Source: a virus. Taken from it: a stretch of 64,000 nucleotides of DNA. A program made the translations under genes and the position numbers. The stretch lies in the IMG/VR virus record IMGVR_UViG_3300006810_000037, positions 5,775 to 69,774 of that record; one strand, written 5' to 3'. Under the pieces are notes generated by a model, which was given only the letters and a program-made list of their open reading frames with translations, did not search any database and had not been told where the DNA came from. Shown here piece after piece: positions 1,201-41,084 of the stretch; within the stretch, counting starts at the first letter, position 1, and each line of letters starts with the position of its first letter.

Positions 1201-4059
1201 TTAGAATCCGAAACCTGGTAAACCACCAAAGCCACCACCTGCTCCTCCTAATAAATCTCCTCCGAAATCGGAGGTGAAATCATCTAAGAAGCTTTGACCT
1301 GAAGTTGATTTCTTAGTTTTAATTGTAGTATTATTACCAAAATCTGCAAAACTATTAGGTGATTGTATCGAAGGTGTATCAAGAAAACTTCCGATAGAAC
1401 CCAAGGCCGCTTCTGGACTTGAAGTATTTAAACCTCCTAATATGTCGAAATCTCCAAATTCAGCCTTTACTTCTTCTTTGCTTTGCCCTGGGAAAAAAGT
1501 ATCATAAAACTCATTCTCTGTTCCTTTAAAACCTGCTTGTTGAAATATACCAAATAGACCTGCTCCTTCTCGTCCGCTTTCTTTATCTATTTCCCTTTCA
1601 ATATAATCCACTCCAAGTGTTTCTTGACTAATTTCTTCACCTGCCTCTGCAAGTGCTTTAATCCTTTCTCTTAAAGTAGCAGCATCTTGACCTTGAATCG
1701 TACTGATAAGAATATTTTTAACTTCATCTAATTCTCCTTCTCCTTTTACAAGTCCGAGTTGCCTTCCAATTTTAGTGTTAGGGCCAACACCTGCATTATC
1801 TAAAACACCTTCAGCAAATTCATCGGGTGAAATAAAATTACCAAAGACACCGCCGCCTAGTACATCGCGTTCGTCAAGAAGACTAGGTATAAGCTCAAAA
1901 TTTTTATACCTTTCAATACGATCCTGATCAATTGGATTATCAAAAGCAGCAAAGGTAATTGGAGCCCCGTCTAATAAAATTTCATTTCCATCAATATCCC
2001 TTCCGCCTCTGGTAATGTCGTATAAAGTTCTTGCAAAAGGCTCCTTTTGAATATCGTAAATTAAATTACCTTTATTGTCTTCAAAAGGTTGAGGGACAAT
2101 ACCTCGCACAAGAAGAGCATTAAGGTATTTAGGATCGCCTGACTGAGCCCGTTCAAATTGTTCTTTAAAAAAGTTTTTTTGAAACTCTAGCTTTCTTTCG
2201 TATCTTGAAGAATCTGCTGCTACTTGCTCTTTAACTGGACGATCAAAAAATGGATTTTCAAAAAATCTTGCATCAAAATTTGCATCTAATCCATCTACTG
2301 GCTTTAAGGCATCTAAAAAAGTTTTAGTCTGATCCAATGCTAAAACCTGCAAAGCATTTTTAGTAGACTGCGTCTGAAACGGAGTTTGCAGTTCTTCATC
2401 AACATCGATAAAATTTATAAACTCATTGATTGATTTAGACGCGTTAAATCTTGGGCGTAGATAATCATTAATAAAATCACGAGCAAATTGAGAATCAATA
2501 CCTTTGTAATTAAAATCAGGGTTATTTGGATTGTCTATAGCCTTAATTTCATTATCTATTTTTTTAATACGGTCAAACGTATCTATTTTTTTTCCACTAG
2601 GAACAAATTCTCTACCTGATATAGTAAATAAAATATCTCTGCCACCAGGTAGTTCTTTTAAATACTCCACTACGTCATCTGTTTTCTCAAAGCCTGTTTC
2701 TCTCAAAAACTCTCTGGTAAATTCACCAGAATCTTTATCAAAAACTTCGCCTTTTTTTTCTAAGGCTTGTGATCTAAACTCTTTTTTACTTCCATTTTTC
2801 GCATAAAAAGCTCTACCGAAATCAGCTTTTGATACTTGGCGGCCGTTTGCATTTGCTGATGAACCGAAACCTTGGTTGTTTGTTTTACTTACTACTTCTT
2901 CATAGGCTTCTAAAACTTTAGGATTAGTCTCTACATAAGCAATATAATCTTCTGGTTTTGGTTGAGCATTTTCTAAAATATCTTTTTCTAACTCAAGATC
3001 TGCGAATTTTTTTTCATAATCTTTTGCGTATTTTTCAACCAGATCTTTTTCAAAAAAGTTTTGCCAATTAACGATAGTGCTATTACCACCAAATTGTCCT
3101 AGAGCCCCTCCTAATGTTTTACTGATTTCATCTCTTACACCGGTTGGTAATAATCCTCCGGCATCGCCCAACAAGTCATTTGCTGCGTTACTTCCAAAAT
3201 TACTAAATTGAGAACCTAATAAATTATTTGTTATATCAAATTGCTGTTCTTCTCTTTTTGCACGCTCCAGTCTATTAATAGTAGTTCGTAAAACATCTTC
3301 TGAAAGCCGACCAAATTGTCTAGTTTGTAATAGACCTTCTTCACCTAGTGCCGTAGTTACACTGTCTTCAGCCAATTCGTCTTTTTTATCAGCTCTAAAC
3401 AGATTAATTGTTTGTTGAGTAACGGCAGGACCACCTTCAAAACCTAGCGGGTTGTCACCAACAAATTTTCCTTTACTTGCAAAAGCATTTGGCTCTCGAT
3501 TTTGCGTAGCTCCATTGAATTGATAATCTCCGGCAGCAAACGTGTTGATATCTGGGAAAGTACCCAGGATATCTAAATTGCCTTCTTCAACTGCTCGTTC
3601 ATATTCAGCTTTGACTTCTGGATACTTTTCTAAATAAAATACAGGGTCAAAAAAATTGTCGGCTGAAACAGGTCCTGATGTAAGAGATACAGGCGAGTAT
3701 CCAGGAACTTGTCTTGTGTCAAAAGGCTTGACAACAAAATCTTTATAAAAGTTATCATAAGATTTAAGCAATGCATTTTTCTTTCCGTCAGATATTTGTA
3801 GATTATTAAGTAAAAAATTCTTTTTAGTAAGGTATTGATTTTGGGTATTTAAAGAAGTTCTAGCTTCTTGTACAACAAGATCTATCGCCGCATTAATTCT
3901 TCTTGCTACATTTAATTGTTTACCAGAATAATCGTTTTCATTAAGCCTATTAACAATAAATTTATCTTTTTTTGCATTGTACCTAAAAATCTCATCTGGC
4001 AGTTTTGCCTGATTCATTCCTCCCGTCTGTGTTTCTGGCTGTGTCTGTGTGCTATTCAT
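1201..4059 (-). CDS. Large putative internal virion/ejection protein
   Basis: 952-aa ORF in the structural module with a Gly/Phe-rich C-terminus; function inferred from context only. Confidence 0.55.
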   Translation of the reverse strand: MNSTQTQPETQTGGMNQAKLPDEIFRYNAKKDKFIVNRLNENDYSGKQLNVARRINAAIDLVVQEARTSLNTQNQYLTKKNFLLNNLQISDGKKNALLKSYDNFYKDFVVKPFDTRQVPGYSPVSLTSGPVSADNFFDPVFYLEKYPEVKAEYERAVEEGNLDILGTFPDINTFAAGDYQFNGATQNREPNAFASKGKFVGDNPLGFEGGPAVTQQTINLFRADKKDELAEDSVTTALGEEGLLQTRQFGRLSEDVLRTTINRLERAKREEQQFDITNNLLGSQFSNFGSNAANDLLGDAGGLLPTGVRDEISKTLGGALGQFGGNSTIVNWQNFFEKDLVEKYAKDYEKKFADLELEKDILENAQPKPEDYIAYVETNPKVLEAYEEVVSKTNNQGFGSSANANGRQVSKADFGRAFYAKNGSKKEFRSQALEKKGEVFDKDSGEFTREFLRETGFEKTDDVVEYLKELPGGRDILFTISGREFVPSGKKIDTFDRIKKIDNEIKAIDNPNNPDFNYKGIDSQFARDFINDYLRPRFNASKSINEFINFIDVDEELQTPFQTQSTKNALQVLALDQTKTFLDALKPVDGLDANFDARFFENPFFDRPVKEQVAADSSRYERKLEFQKNFFKEQFERAQSGDPKYLNALLVRGIVPQPFEDNKGNLIYDIQKEPFARTLYDITRGGRDIDGNEILLDGAPITFAAFDNPIDQDRIERYKNFELIPSLLDERDVLGGGVFGNFISPDEFAEGVLDNAGVGPNTKIGRQLGLVKGEGELDEVKNILISTIQGQDAATLRERIKALAEAGEEISQETLGVDYIEREIDKESGREGAGLFGIFQQAGFKGTENEFYDTFFPGQSKEEVKAEFGDFDILGGLNTSSPEAALGSIGSFLDTPSIQSPNSFADFGNNTTIKTKKSTSGQSFLDDFTSDFGGDLLGGAGGGFGGLPGFGF

Positions 4060-13754: not shown

Positions 13755-14577
13755 CTCCTGGTCTCCAATTTCTTGAAGGGGTGGACCATCTCTTCATCCC
13801 AGAGGGATGCCGGACGCTGTATCTGGTATTACGTTACAAGATCGTGTAACACCCAGTGGCCTCTGCACGTTCCAATCACGGGCTTGATTGGCTTCGCTCA
13901 GGATTACCCTCGTCTTTACGTTAGGGCTTCCCTGAATTCATCCGGTTTTCACTTAACGATTGCTCGCTAAGGTGACAACGCTTGAGAAGTTCAGGTGAGG
14001 TAAAATTTGGAAACTTGTTCATAAACATCATGAATCCAAAATTAGTCTCAGGATTTGGTAATCTCTACTTAACTGAATCCGGAAGAGCTTTTGAAAAACA
14101 CTTGGACGATAATGACCAGGAGTATTTTGAAGAACTTCCTATACAACACACTAGTAAGTATGATCGTGTCTCAATCCTTGTTGACAGTAAAAGAAAAAGA
14201 TTTAATTTACACGTCTTAATGGCTGTTGCTTTCTTGGATTTAGATTTGCGTTCACATGGAACACACAACTTTTCTTTGCAAGTTAATCATATAGATAACA
14301 ACAAAAGAAATAACAATCTAAATAATTTAGAGATTGCTACTAAACAAGAAAACCTTATAAGAAGCTGGACTGAAAACAATCAAATTAACAATGGTTTTGC
14401 AAGTAAAGGAAAGGCGAAAACATCACTCAGGAAATTTTCTAAAGAAGATGTGAAACAAATTAAATCTTTAAAAGAAGCAGGTCTTTCATACAGAAAGATT
14501 GCTGAAAAATTTAATTGTAATCACGGTGCTATTTACCAAATGCTGAAAGGTAATACCTACCAGGATCTGAACTAGCT
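13755..14577 (-). mobile_element. Group I self-splicing intron (823 nt) in the major capsid gene
   Basis: 5' exon ends in U and intron ends in G; P AAUUCAGGGAAG, Q AAUCCUGAGC, R GUGCAGAGGCCA, S AAGAGAUGGUCC; P3 CCGGA/UCCGG; IGS CGUUGUCA (13980-13973) pairs with both exons. Confidence 0.92.
14030..14575 (+). CDS. Intron-encoded HNH homing endonuclease with C-terminal HTH (antisense to the intron)
   Basis: LHVLMAVAF...VNHIDNNKRNNNLNNLE...EN HNH motif; GLSYRKIAEKFNCNHGAI HTH; TAAAAT at 14001-14006 upstream. Confidence 0.88.
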   Translation: MNPKLVSGFGNLYLTESGRAFEKHLDDNDQEYFEELPIQHTSKYDRVSILVDSKRKRFNLHVLMAVAFLDLDLRSHGTHNFSLQVNHIDNNKRNNNLNNLEIATKQENLIRSWTENNQINNGFASKGKAKTSLRKFSKEDVKQIKSLKEAGLSYRKIAEKFNCNHGAIYQMLKGNTYQDLN

Positions 14578-30223: not shown

Positions 30224-30289
30224 GCTACTTCTTTTGCTTTTATCTGTATTAATTCTAAAATAATTAACTTATCAGGGCCTTAATAGGGC

Positions 30290-30570
30290 CTATTTTTTTA
30301 AAAAAAATAATTTTTTTTGTTTTTTAAGGTTAAAATTTGGTTAAAAAAGCTATATATATAGGCCGATTTGGGAAAATATTCTGCTGATCATTCTAGCGCG
30401 GGTCTCATTTTTCCCAAACCGAGAGGAAAAAAAATAAACAGGGGATGTGCCTGTGGATAACCCTGGGGATAACGGGGCCAGGCCTGGGAAATGTGGGGAT
30501 ATCCTGACAATTCCTGGGGAGAAAGATGGGGAAATATTAAGATTTCCTGTAGATATCCTGTGGAAAACCA
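30290..30570. other. AT-rich tract plus cluster of DnaA-box-like sites
   Basis: Poly-A/T runs at 30290-30360; TGTGGATAA 30452 (perfect), TGGGGATAA 30464, TGTGGAAAA 30559 and four weaker co-oriented copies. Confidence 0.6.
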
Positions 30571-30699
30571 CCGTTCTAGCTGTGAAAAACGCTGAGATCC
30601 ATTGCGGCGCAAGGAGTTTCCTCAATTCCACAGGTGAGCCGGGCATGTATGTGGATGGTGTATGATCGCGCACGCATTCCTATGTGTTCGACGGAATGG

Positions 30700-30728
30700 T
30701 TGCAGCACTGCCGCTGATGGCCTATAGT
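30700..30728 (+). promoter_or_regulatory. Putative sigma70-type early promoter
   Basis: TTGCAG-N17-TATAGT. Confidence 0.5.
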
Positions 30729-30767
30729 GGATTCATCGGGGACGCCACGGGCTCTCCGGTCAATCGG

Positions 30768-30795
30768 TTGACAGGTCCGCCGGATCTGCTACGAT
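30768..30795 (+). promoter_or_regulatory. Putative sigma70-type early promoter
   Basis: TTGACA-N16-TACGAT with extended -10 TG. Confidence 0.6.
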
Positions 30796-30841
30796 TGAAC
30801 CAAGCGAGGCGGGTGACAGCCGCAGCGCTACAGTTATCCGA

Positions 30842-30875
30842 GCAGGTCACCACCCTGCGCACCTAGACAATTGAA
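30842..30875 (+). promoter_or_regulatory. boxB-like hairpin plus boxA-like antitermination element
   Basis: GCAGG-TCACCAC-CCTGC followed directly by GCACCTAGACAATTGAA, similar to cyanobacterial rrn boxA. Confidence 0.5.
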
Positions 30876-31033
30876 GAAGAGTACCGGCACCGATTGGTTG
30901 CAGGTGGGCGAACTAGAGCCAGCCCCAGTCCGGCCCGGATGCGCGTGACACCGATGGTGTGTGTCACAGCCAGGGGGAGACATCCTCTGTAGCTGAAACG
31001 TAGGCTTTTTGTAAGCTGATGGTAGGCAAATTG

Positions 31034-31120
31034 TGCGGAGTGGCAGCCGCAGCGGACTCATAGATTCACCGTTCCCGGTCCCAAGGGGGGACTGTGCAGG
31101 TTCGAGTCCTGCCGGGATCC
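31034..31120 (+). ncRNA. tRNA-like structured RNA (not a canonical tRNA)
   Basis: D-arm-like GCGG-AGTGGCAG-CCGC; T-arm GCAGG-TTCGAGT-CCTGC; acceptor-like GTTCCCG/CGGGATC lying 3' of the D-like arm. Confidence 0.65.
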
Positions 31121-31164
31121 TTGGCAGCAGTAATGTTGTCAATTGTCCTATCACCACTAAGACA

Positions 31165-31338
31165 ATGATTTCTTTTTCTAAAGTTGAAGCTGATTTTCTT
31201 TCTCATTGCATGGAAATTTTCGCTGATACTTTCAAGGAAGGTGAAGAGATGAACTTCACTGATTATGATCGTGAGAATATTCTTATGAATCATCTTCAGA
31301 TTGAAGAACTTTATCGGAAACTTCAAACATTAAGCTGA
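31165..31338 (+). CDS. Small early protein (57 aa)
   Basis: ATG follows the shared ATCACCACTAAGA leader; 3' part of tracked ORF 31033-31338. Confidence 0.7.
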   Translation: MISFSKVEADFLSHCMEIFADTFKEGEEMNFTDYDRENILMNHLQIEELYRKLQTLS

Positions 31339-31428
31339 TCCGTTCAAGCGGGTCCGGAGTGTGCAATCCCTCCGGCAGTTATTGTCAGCAGCAATGCTGA
31401 CATTCGTTCTATCACCACTAAGAACATG
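31333..31428 (+). repeat. Intergenic structured repeat, copy 1 (mini-tRNA-like fold, hairpin, leader)
   Basis: Near identical to 31775-31870; AGCTG/CAGTT, CCG-TTCAAG-CGG, CCGGAG-T-G-TGCAATC-C-CTCCGG, TCAGCA-GCAA-TGCTGA. Confidence 0.9.
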
Positions 31429-31761
31429 CCTGTTAACAATCCAGACTTACTCTGTGCTTACGGAAGTATGACTGAGCGTCAACAGAAACGCTATGACAAC
31501 TTGAAAGTTGAGCATAGATATGCACGTTTCTGTGCAGACAATGATCGTAACGGAAACCCTCGGAGAATCTGGGTGGTTTCTAACGACAAAGGTGAGGCAT
31601 TATTTGCCTGGGATGAAGGTTACCATGGCCGCAATTGTGTGCCGGGTAGTTTACGTCGATCCTTCGATGATCATTCTGTAAGGGTAGATTGTAACGTCGC
31701 GACTTATCAAATGTTGAAGAAGTTACCCTCCCCTGAATTCGTACCTAATTTCAATTGGTAA
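31426..31761 (+). CDS. Early hypothetical protein
   Basis: NDRNGNPRR...DEGY motif seen in phage early proteins; shared leader. Confidence 0.75.
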   Translation: MPVNNPDLLCAYGSMTERQQKRYDNLKVEHRYARFCADNDRNGNPRRIWVVSNDKGEALFAWDEGYHGRNCVPGSLRRSFDDHSVRVDCNVATYQMLKKLPSPEFVPNFNW

Positions 31762-31774
31762 TTACCATATTGAA

Positions 31775-31870
31775 AGCTGTTCCGTTCAAGCGGGTCCGGA
31801 GTGTGCAATCCCTCCGGCAGTTATTGTCAGCAGCAATGCTGGCAATTGTTCTATCACCACTAAGAACATG
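31775..31870 (+). repeat. Intergenic structured repeat, copy 2
   Basis: Near identical to 31333-31428. Confidence 0.9.
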
Positions 31871-32089
31871 GAGAAACCACTGATCACATCTGAGAGAATC
31901 CCTCACGATTGTGGACACTATCACGAGAGAATTTATAACCACGATACAATCGTGGCCTATATCTTGAGTGAACCTGGAAAGGGTACATATTGCTTCGTTA
32001 ACAACGAAGATCAAATGTGCTGGAAAGGTTATGCAACCGTGGCTGATGCCAAGGAAGCATTCTTCAAACTCCGTCCTGATCTTAATTAA
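31868..32089 (+). CDS. Early hypothetical protein
   Basis: Start defined by the shared leader. Confidence 0.7.
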   Translation: MEKPLITSERIPHDCGHYHERIYNHDTIVAYILSEPGKGTYCFVNNEDQMCWKGYATVADAKEAFFKLRPDLN

Positions 32090-32090
32090 T

Positions 32091-32153
32091 GACGAAACTA
32101 TCCCTCCGGGGATAGTCTCCGGACTTGGCATGTCCGGACTGATGAGTCTGCCA
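32091..32153 (+). ncRNA. Type II hammerhead ribozyme, copy 1 (predicted cleavage after C32117)
   Basis: GAC-GAAAC-TATCCC(TCCG)GGGATA-GTC-TCCGGAC(TTGGCAT)GTCCGGA-CTGATGA-GTC-TGCCA; intact core; loop-1 TGGCA pairs with 3' TGCCA. Confidence 0.93.
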
Positions 32154-32176
32154 CTTGTTCAATCACCACTAAGAAC

Positions 32177-32938
32177 ATGTCAAGTAACGGTTACGTTCTA
32201 CAGCGCGGACTTTCACCTATCAATGGTGAACCTTTCGTTGTAATCATGACAATGAAGTCTTCAAATAAGAAGACCAGTAATATGATCCAGGTCTGGATAT
32301 TGCATGAGGATGTTAATCCTGTTGATGCAATTAAATCAGGCTTAGATGAAACTATATGTGGATATTGTTCACATCGTTTTCGTCTACATCCTGATGGCAA
32401 GTTACATAGGACTTGTTATGTGAATCCAGGTCAAGCACCATTATCTATCTGGCGTGCATACAAGAGGGGTTTATACCCAGGCATTAACAGCTGCTTTAAT
32501 GTTGTCCGGTTATTATCGGGCCGTCATATTAGATGGGGTGCTTATGGGGATCCTTCTGTGATCGACCCTTCTATTGTGAAATCTTTCAATGAGAAAGCTG
32601 AGGGCCACACTGGATACACTCATCAATGGAAGCATTCATTTGCTGATGCTTTCATAGGTGTGTTCCAGGCATCATGTGATTCTTTCGGTGATTATCTTGA
32701 GGCCTCTTCTAAGGGGTGGAAATGTTTCTCAGTTGTTAACAAGGGCGATACCAATGTGGCTAACATCGGCAAGCTATGTCCGACTGAGGTTCCAAACTCA
32801 CAAGCTAAGTGTCAATCATGCACTCTATGTGATGGTTCAAAGACTGATATTTTCATCCCTGCTCATGGCACGGGTGGCAAATTAGTCTCCTATGTAAGCC
32901 AAGATGTGCACGAGCTTTCTGAGCTGCTGTTCAATTGA
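32177..32938 (+). CDS. Cys-rich putative Fe-S/radical-SAM-like phage protein
   Basis: SSNKKT...CGYCSH...CYV...IRWGAYGDP...TGYTHQW...ASCDS...CP...CQSCTLC...AHG. Confidence 0.7.
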   Translation: MSSNGYVLQRGLSPINGEPFVVIMTMKSSNKKTSNMIQVWILHEDVNPVDAIKSGLDETICGYCSHRFRLHPDGKLHRTCYVNPGQAPLSIWRAYKRGLYPGINSCFNVVRLLSGRHIRWGAYGDPSVIDPSIVKSFNEKAEGHTGYTHQWKHSFADAFIGVFQASCDSFGDYLEASSKGWKCFSVVNKGDTNVANIGKLCPTEVPNSQAKCQSCTLCDGSKTDIFIPAHGTGGKLVSYVSQDVHELSELLFN

Positions 32939-32942
32939 TCTC

Positions 32943-33005
32943 GACGAAACTATCCCTCCGGGGATAGTCCTAGGGTTTAGCATCCCCTAGCTGATGAGTC
33001 TGCCA
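32943..33005 (+). ncRNA. Type II hammerhead ribozyme, copy 2 (predicted cleavage after C32969)
   Basis: Same core and stem III; different but fully paired stem I CTAGGG(TTTAGCATC)CCCTAG; CTGATGA-GTC-TGCCA. Confidence 0.9.
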
Positions 33006-33025
33006 CTATTCTTTTCAACAATCCA

Positions 33026-33397
33026 ATGCACAATCACAACATCCTTCGGGCACTTAATGTGCTGTCAATTCTGATCCAAACTAGTTACGAACTAGGCTAT
33101 GAAACCGGTAAGTTTTACCGGCAACACTTACATCATCACGTTGTTTCTGGCATCGCTTTATTAATCACAGTTTGTGTACACTTATATGCAAACCGTAAAC
33201 GATACAGAAATAAGATAGAGGCTTTGTTTGTATATCGATACGAAACAACCATTAACCTTGCGCCAGCTGTTCATCCTCTGTATGCTTCGATGGAATCATT
33301 AATGATTCAAACGAGCAGAGACCTTCGTGCGATCACTGGCATCAAACGTAAGGTCTCTAAGGTAAGGATGACAGATCAGTACCTTTCCATGGTCTGA
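33026..33397 (+). CDS. Early hypothetical membrane protein
   Basis: YELGYETG...hydrophobic helix...APAVHPL pattern. Confidence 0.65.
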   Translation: MHNHNILRALNVLSILIQTSYELGYETGKFYRQHLHHHVVSGIALLITVCVHLYANRKRYRNKIEALFVYRYETTINLAPAVHPLYASMESLMIQTSRDLRAITGIKRKVSKVRMTDQYLSMV

Positions 33398-33404
33398 GCA
33401 CTGT

Positions 33405-33503
33405 GATCTGGGCTGCATCTTGGCGTGACTGTGTGGTGCTTTCGCGCCATGATTCTCTACAGCGTAAGACCCAGGTTTGGGGGGTTGCGCCTACAACTCC
33501 CCT
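33405..33503 (+). ncRNA. Intergenic long hairpin with TAAGA bulge plus second hairpin
   Basis: GATCTGGG/CCCAGGTT closing stem; TGGTGC-TTTC-GCGCCA apex; GGGGGTTG...CAACTCCC downstream. Confidence 0.5.
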
Positions 33504-39301: not shown

Positions 39302-39390
39302 GGGAGCGTGCTGAAATTGGTAGACAGAACGGACTTAAAATCCGCCGAGCTGTAAAGCTCATGTGGGTTCAAGTCCCGCCGCTCCTACCA
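39302..39390 (+). tRNA. trnL: tRNA-Leu(UAA) with encoded CCA
   Basis: Acceptor GGGAGCG/CGCTCCT; D-loop AATTGGTAG; anticodon loop CT-TAA-AA; long variable arm GAGC/GCTC; T-arm GTGGG-TTCAAGT-CCCGC. Confidence 0.95.
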
Positions 39391-40964: not shown

Positions 40965-41084
40965 GAGAACGCTTGTAGCTGATTCCCCTGTAGCAAAGTG
41001 TTTCCATGGTCAGTTCATCGTCAAATCTCAGGCCCCGTTCCCTGCCTGAAGAAGTGCGCCGGTGTAAACCGGTGAACGTTCTCC
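40964..41084 (+). ncRNA. Candidate multi-stem ncRNA
   Basis: GGAGAACG/CGTTCTCC closing stem with three internal hairpins. Confidence 0.4.

Follow-up and report, generated by a model that had tools for sequence, protein, structure and literature searches.

Two type II hammerhead ribozymes around a gene of a freshwater phage probably punctuate a long early transcript

Two hammerhead ribozymes of type II, here called HH1 and HH2 (hammerheads 1 and 2), lie on the plus strand on either side of a single gene in a 64,000-nucleotide (nt) stretch of virus DNA, and the question that this locus raises is what such a pair does for the phage. The stretch, referred to below as the window, comprises bases 5775-69774 of the 69,774-bp virus record IMGVR_UViG_3300006810_000037 in IMG/VR; the record has direct terminal repeats, and the window DNA is present in 14 freshwater metagenome runs. 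An earlier note on this DNA had proposed that the two ribozymes act as a device around the gene and release it as a single RNA of 852 nt, either as a stable messenger with a 5'-OH end or as a circle. We found both ribozymes, and comparison with related phages led us to a different answer: the hammerheads probably cut a long early transcript into messages of one gene or one cassette, and would thus serve as punctuation of the transcript.

HH1 occupies 32090..32156 and HH2 32942..33008, and the gene between them (32177..32938, plus strand) encodes a phage protein of 253 amino acids (aa; phrog_2554, with a weak match to DUF7227). In HH1, stem II (GAC/GUC) is formed by 32091-93 with 32146-48, followed by the GAAA core at 32094-97, the stem III hairpin (CUAUCCC/GGGAUAG, loop UCCG) that ends at 32116, the GUC cleavage triplet at 32115-17, the stem I hairpin (UCCGGAC/GUCCGGA, loop UUGGCAU) at 32118-38, the CUGAUGA core at 32139-45 and the pseudoknot tail UGCCA at 32149-53. 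The 5' half of the HH2 element (32943-33007) is the same as that of HH1 in 27 of 27 bases, and stem III has 8 bp and a UCCG cap in both copies. Stem I of HH2 is unlike that of HH1 and nevertheless paired (CUAGGG/CCCUAG, loop UUUAGCAU), and the 3' core and tail are those of HH1. The predicted cuts fall at 32117/32118 and 32969/32970, and double cleavage would release the piece 32118-32969, whose length is 852 nt as the earlier note had calculated. Both spacers hold a complete core: CUGAUGA, GAAA, the A15.1-U16.1 pair and GUC are present in each copy. In the structure lines of cmscan, stems I and III are capped by loops and stem II is open, and minimum-free-energy folds show stems III and I. The pseudoknot between loop 1 and the tail, which the earlier note had described for the first copy, has five of five pairs in HH1 (UGGCA/UGCCA); to this we add that HH2 retains four of five (UAGCA/UGCCA), with an A.C mismatch that results from a G-to-A change in the loop.

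Both copies matched the Rfam model Hammerhead_II (RF02276) over its full length (model positions 1-66), HH1 with 35.4 bits (E 3.7e-5, scan of 1.3 kb) and HH2 with 31.0 bits (E 4.1e-5, scan of 101 nt), though under the curated gathering cut-off of 37 bits. Because of this, HH1 and HH2 were missed in the gathering scan of the whole window, whose only matches were a group I intron, a transfer RNA (tRNA) and a glutamine-II riboswitch. The bare pattern GAAAC..GTC..CTGATGA occurs twice in the 64 kb against 0.14 expected, and two occurrences were reached in only one of 100 shuffles.

For covariation, we aligned ten copies from four phage records, with two copies each from the window, from the contig L002 and from the record G004, and four from the record G005, G004 and G005 being unrelated. 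The 15-mer CTGATGAGNCTGCCA has at least 118 viral loci, of which we followed those two that matched twice (L082 and L093). Both hold serial type II hammerheads on the minus strand: L093 (G005) has four at 1034-2783, each between genes, with a best copy of 46.7 bits, and L082 (G004) has two between genes at 2321-3325, with a best copy of 40 bits, both above the Rfam cut-off. In the ten-copy alignment, 95.6% of cells were paired and 13 of 23 pairs changed on both sides; none of 500 shuffles reached the observed values, and slid partners were 29-42% paired. When the helices were taken alone, 95.7-98.7% of cells were paired and 12 of the 18 helix pairs changed on both sides. Stem II covaries, its middle pair being A-U, G-C or U-A, and the catalytic core is invariant in all ten copies. 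The pseudoknot is paired in 90% of cells, with one compensatory pair (UCGCA/UGCGA, in one G005 copy), and a second compensated variant (UGACA/UGUCA) occurs in a further copy in the contig L273. Between L002 and the window, compensatory changes are found in stem II (GAC/GUC to GGC/GCC), in stem I and in stem III.

A model built from the ten aligned copies (R2), run over the whole window with filters off, returned exactly two matches at E<=1, namely HH1 (83.7 bits) and HH2 (77.7 bits). In related contigs it found ten strong copies, two in L002, two in L277, three in L279 and three in L273; the last three contigs had been found through a search for the conserved leader described below and a pattern scan of metagenomes. 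Taken together, the motif is identified and covaries, and by these alignments HH1 and HH2 are genuine type II hammerheads with predicted cleavage activity.

The alignment also bears on the possibility that the repeats of hammerhead plus leader act mainly as DNA, as homologous boundaries at which cassettes are swapped or lost, with RNA cleavage being incidental. A direct repeat of 65 nt with 83% identity does lie on both sides of the flanked gene, the cassette content between modules differs among the window, L002, L279 and L277, and there is a precedent in T4-type phages, where genes are shuffled by promoter-stem-loop cassettes. However, the stems change in a compensatory manner while the core stays invariant in 10/10 copies, which indicates that selection acts on the fold and core of the RNA and not on DNA identity. 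We consider a mainly DNA-based role unlikely; roles in DNA exchange and in RNA cleavage are not mutually exclusive and can coexist.

If the two ribozymes formed a unit around the gene, their distance and the gene would be expected to stay together. Instead, what is constant is the position of the ribozyme relative to the following gene: in all 11 complete copies, from five contigs including the window, the predicted cut lies 56-62 nt ahead of the start codon of an open reading frame (ORF) of at least 50 aa. The distances between successive cuts in the window and its relatives are 852, 852, 741, 1245, 466 and 1022 nt. The 852-nt spacing is common to the window and its closest relative, L002, which has the same two ribozymes (RF02276 scores of 35.9 and 36.0 bits) around a protein that is 94% identical. 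The content of the cassettes also differs between close relatives. A 73-aa gene precedes HH1 in the window and other ORFs take its place in L002; L279 and L277 have an extra cassette of 217/218 aa; and in L279, the interval with the 253-aa gene also holds about 390 nt of small ORFs; the modules of L279 run X, two genes, hammerhead, gene, hammerhead, gene (plus small ORFs), hammerhead, gene, where X is a second structured element discussed below. Among 13 further loci that encode homologues of the 253-aa protein (30-61% identity), none has a hammerhead at E<=1. Because the distance from cut to start is fixed, the intervals vary and homologues occur without ribozyme, the hammerhead is best read as a module of the gene that follows it. 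The idea of a device around one gene thus gives way to two successive modules of 5' untranslated regions (UTRs), each apparently tied to its own downstream gene.

In the mechanism that we propose, each hammerhead would fold while the polycistronic RNA is being transcribed and would cut itself after GUC. The upstream message would then end with the stem III hairpin and a 2',3'-cyclic phosphate, and the downstream message would carry a 5'-OH, followed by the stem I hairpin, the leader and, at a fixed distance of 56-59 nt, the start codon. The two products would be bridged by stem II only; because it has just 3 bp, they should separate fast and the cut would be effectively irreversible, which suits punctuation and argues against religation. 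Each boundary module of this phage, the two further kinds described below included, lies directly after a stop codon and shortly ahead of the 5' hairpin and/or the leader of the next cassette. The fixed distance, together with the fact that the same slot is used by other structured modules, points to defined 5' ends of mRNA at cassette boundaries and not to circles. We infer that cleavage takes place in vivo and benefits the phage, through defined 5' UTRs and through uncoupling of the stability or translation of one cassette from another.

Several observations weigh against punctuation. Both Rfam scores fall short of the cut-off, although 37 bits is a bookkeeping threshold and not a biochemical feature. 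HH2 has the A.C mismatch in its pseudoknot and has lost the seventh stem I pair that its counterpart in L002 retains, and it may be a slow cutter. Four of the homologue loci, at 57-61% identity, have tightly packed genes with neither ribozyme nor structured spacers. In addition, a single transcript over the whole stretch is an assumption drawn from gene orientation and spacing only. The state of HH2 would also fit conditional cleavage, in which HH2 or both ribozymes cut only at certain Mg2+ levels or protein states and thereby time the downstream early genes. The uncompensated mismatch of HH2 recurs, through the same loop change, in a second lineage, L279, which suggests that it is tolerated or even selected, and regulated cutting has been proposed for slower phage variants in what is available of the study by Perreault et al. 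(PMC3088659). On the other hand, the ribozymes carry no ligand-binding or extra domain, and the pseudoknot is intact at the same site in L002, so the mismatch may be neutral drift. Conditional cleavage appears to us quite improbable.

The circle proposed earlier would be made by ligation of the 852-nt RNA, through the reverse hammerhead reaction or by a host ligase of the RtcB type, and would be a translatable circular mRNA. Hammerhead products have 5'-OH and 2',3'-cyclic phosphate ends, and this end chemistry fits the proposal. So do the 27/27 identical 5' halves, with which the junction would recreate HH1, and the 852-nt spacing kept in L002. The claim that the rejoined ends rebuild a hammerhead is correct; the "hybrid" is in fact exactly the sequence of the first copy, since the 5' halves are identical. 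Against the circle, only the 3-bp stem II could bring the ends together, and the junction, once rebuilt, would form an intact ribozyme and be cut again. Nor is the interval between hammerheads kept (741, 1245, 466 and 1022 nt in relatives, with the extra ORFs in L279): a conserved unit between two ribozymes, as expected for a circular RNA, was not found among six intervals of 466-1245 nt with differing gene content. The phage genome has no match to RtcB (PF01139) or to RNA_ligase (PF09414, Rnl2-type), which also speaks against closure by the phage itself; PF09511 (T4 RNA ligase 1) likewise had no match in the genome, in a search whose controls were equally without match. Perreault et al. considered circular or spliced products of such clusters and, as far as the available text goes, detected none (PMC3088659), and a full-text literature search returned nothing on phage mRNA circles, as judged by titles and abstracts. 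We regard the circle as very unlikely. Of the two products offered by the earlier note, the monocistronic 5'-OH mRNA is the likeliest, and the circle gained no positive evidence.

RNA data were available from four metatranscriptome runs as contigs only, at a depth of 2-8, in which rare forms are lost and ends are not resolved. The contigs show that genes of the region are present in RNA libraries, and none of them spans either cut site. On the 3' side, contigs from four runs start at 32134, 32136, 32140 and 32148 and from one run at 32982; on the 5' side, they stop at 32074 and 32101, the latter contig continuing into unlike sequence. These edges near the cut sites hint weakly, if at all, at a break in the RNA. 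No joint of 32969 to 32118 was reported in the contigs, which at such depth prove neither cleavage nor the absence of a circle.

Does the phage use the slot of the hammerheads for other RNAs? Upstream of HH1 we found two further kinds of structured element at cassette boundaries, and the order in the window is tRNA-like element, gene, element X, gene, element X, gene, HH1, gene, HH2, gene. The tRNA-like element (31071-31119, plus strand) has an acceptor-like stem of 7 bp, interrupted by one U.U mismatch, as well as a single hairpin and a canonical T arm (GCAGG-UUCGAGU-CCUGC). It matches the mascRNA-menRNA model weakly (19.2 bits, E 0.78), and ARAGORN makes no call. It closes a non-coding stretch of about 800 nt; directly after it come a P4-type hairpin (31121-31142) and then the leader that belongs to the first gene, a layout that is also found in the contig L275. 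Within this stretch, the segment 30600-31000 (plus strand) has a GC content of 56-62%, compared with about 43% for the genome, and no database match. The GC-rich spacer (30590-31125) was considered as one large structured RNA, an idea that was dropped because its fold was no better than that of shuffles (z -0.32). P4 hairpins with GNRA-type loops (31121-31142, 31383-31402 and 31823-31846, plus strand) precede three start codons by about 25 nt, and comparison of the window with L002/L275 shows that they covary. They were flagged as no more than weak terminator-like sites. After cleavage, stem I of the hammerhead would take the equivalent 5'-terminal place of P4.

Element X is present in two copies on the plus strand, at 31327..31387 (fold z -3.4; 70.1 bits with our own model R1) and at 31769..31829 (67.8 bits), each followed by its P4 hairpin (31383-31402 and 31823-31846) and a leader. 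It is a three-way junction (P1, P2 and P3) with two T-loop-like hairpins in the same slot before the next gene as the hammerheads. It has an invariant CUGAUCCGUUCAAGCGG stretch and a covarying P3 stem, and its place is the 5' UTR of small phage genes. The P3 loop of 7 nt reads UGCRAAY, and the 3' strand of P3 continues directly into that of P1, in the manner of a T arm joined to an acceptor stem; in one variant (L313, 4226-4284), this scaffold bears a canonical T arm. The invariant 17-mer of X occurs at 34 viral loci (among L293-L326), 28 of which match the X model strongly, and the element is also found in seven metagenome contigs (among L275-L291). L310, L295 and like contigs carry two or three copies at 250-750 nt from each other. 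Over 24 strong matches, 92.3% of cells were paired and 8 of 14 pairs changed on both sides, a result that an alignment fitted to the model favours.

We found no family for element X. Window 30600-32100, 31318-31432 and L299 7690-7830 gave no Rfam 15 family at E<=10, and 13 of the 34 loci with the X pattern (125 kb) gave no Rfam match at gathering; a known ribozyme class was dropped as an explanation, as no Rfam family matched in those scans. ARAGORN made no tRNA call, and no match to the Rfam tRNA clan was obtained at E<=10. In genome contigs the 17-mer has 76 loci, which by our own estimate is about the number expected by chance in 596 Gb, and their flanks are without X hairpins. The loop pattern TTCAAG..TGTGCAATCC has at least 118 loci in viral contigs, all those listed being conserved coding stretches of other phages and none X-like, and a tighter form of the pattern had no viral match.

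Hammerhead, tRNA-like element and element X most likely represent three kinds of boundary module that can stand in for one another in this phage lineage. That all three make RNA ends, with X as an undescribed RNA family doing the job of the hammerhead, either as a minimal substrate of tRNA-like form for RNase P/RNase Z or as a new self-cleaving ribozyme, is a tentative proposal that we think could be correct but would not bet on. From its T-loop-like features, we read X as a putative processing signal of minimal tRNA-like form; the bolder alternative would be a self-cleaving RNA of a new kind. The most interesting by-product of this analysis is the variety of boundary modules, together with the unclassified family X as a candidate new processing RNA, and a transcript of 2 kb with three types of module offers a compact test bed.

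The modules lie at the beginning of what looks like an early operon. Up to about 29350, the minus strand encodes structural and packaging genes; after a divergent region near 30300, small early genes start on the plus strand, and from about 31165 a run of small genes is followed by DNA polymerase and primase. The first gene of the series (31165-31338) is preceded by the tRNA-like element, the P4-type hairpin and the leader. The 73-aa gene upstream of HH1 (31868..32089) has a stop codon that ends 1 nt before the ribozyme, and the next gene after HH2 (33026..33397; 123 aa, phrog_3587) starts 56 nt past the cut; both are on the plus strand. The conserved leader AUCACCACUAAGAAC plus AUG stands at 32162..32179 (plus strand) before the flanked gene and also ahead of the genes at 31165, 31426 and 31868, which amounts to four matches with three or fewer mismatches against 0.07 expected, and it is found 3' of the hammerheads in L002, L273, L277 and L279 as well. 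A sigma-70 scan gave fewer sites than in shuffles. The leader was also considered as a promoter of a phage-encoded RNA polymerase; the genome has no PF00940 match (in a search without positive control), a PHROGs scan that covered 10 of the 34 ORFs with 200 aa or more found no polymerase of the promoter-reading kind encoded by phages, and this explanation was dropped as unsupported by either scan. Nucleotide searches (blastn) of 31400-33500 and 30340-31130 against a phage collection gave no match. The product of the flanked gene matches DUF7227 at 14 bits, below the cut-off, and has no PDB relative at E<0.39; in Atlas it falls in clusters of hypothetical phage proteins only.

Elsewhere in the window, the divergent non-coding region has several repeats like TGGGGA(T/A)A / TGTGGATAA (30440-30570, plus strand) beside an AT-rich tract (30260-30340), and these repeats may resemble the DnaA boxes or iterons that are found at replication origins. 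The structural gene region holds a group I intron on the minus strand (13762-13994; RF00028, 87 bits), and a tRNA-Leu(UAA) lies at 39302-39390 on the plus strand. A glutamine-II riboswitch aptamer (47.2 bits) is found at 41027-41081 on the minus strand; the distribution of this riboswitch hints at a cyanobacterial host.

Hammerheads that flank phage genes have been known since 2011. In that year, Perreault et al. described clustered hammerheads in prophages that flank single genes or short blocks, that cleave in vitro and, at one locus, in vivo in E. coli, and that were read as a means of processing into mRNAs of operon or gene length, according to the text available of that paper (PMC3088659). 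The clusters include the triple arrangement at ardA of Agrobacterium tumefaciens and those of Clostridium scindens and Azorhizobium caulinodans, and they share with the present locus several hammerheads on the same strand between phage genes, the inconstant identity of the flanked genes, and type II ribozymes with the pseudoknot between loop I and the 3' tail; processing of a long transcript was proposed and circles were considered for them as well, so far as the same text shows (PMC3088659). Thus, both the arrangement and the circle idea are already in print, and the present pair adds to a known arrangement; it is a tidy new example and no discovery. Unlike those prophages, the present genome is that of a free freshwater phage, and unlike the clusters as described in what is available of the paper (PMC3088659), its ribozymes are joined to a leader at 56-62 nt and alternate with two modules that are not hammerheads. 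What the locus adds is a comparative argument, namely the fixed distance before the start codon and a slot shared with a tRNA-like element and a second structured RNA.

In Desulfovibrio vulgaris, cleavage both in vivo and in vitro has been shown for three type II hammerheads located close to phage-like genes, in the portion available of a report on cyPhyRNA-seq (PMC8782182). That case and ours share the ribozyme type and a pair of copies separated by a few hundred nt, whereas the gene context differs, and cleavage, which in that report (PMC8782182) was shown, is here predicted from sequence. Retrozymes and viroid-like RNAs use hammerheads of type I or III, according to the available part of a review (PMC7761336). 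They resemble the present locus in that two hammerheads in direct orientation bound a unit with ligatable 5'-OH and cyclic phosphate ends; they differ in that their units have a characteristic length and are non-coding or replicative, whereas here the open helix has 3 bp, the length is variable and the unit holds an ordinary phage gene.

The modules of this phage may be set beside two further features of known systems. In retrozyme and viroid-like hammerheads the open helix is extended by pairing of the RNA itself. In organelles, tRNA punctuation and the so-called t-elements place processing signals for RNase P and RNase Z at cistron boundaries and so define mRNA ends. Two modules of the window, the tRNA-like element (31071-31119) and element X with its T-loop-like hairpin, resemble organelle t-elements, as they occupy the hammerhead slot at cistron boundaries; unlike in organelles, processing by RNase P and RNase Z is here only presumed, and the hammerheads that alternate with these elements work without protein.

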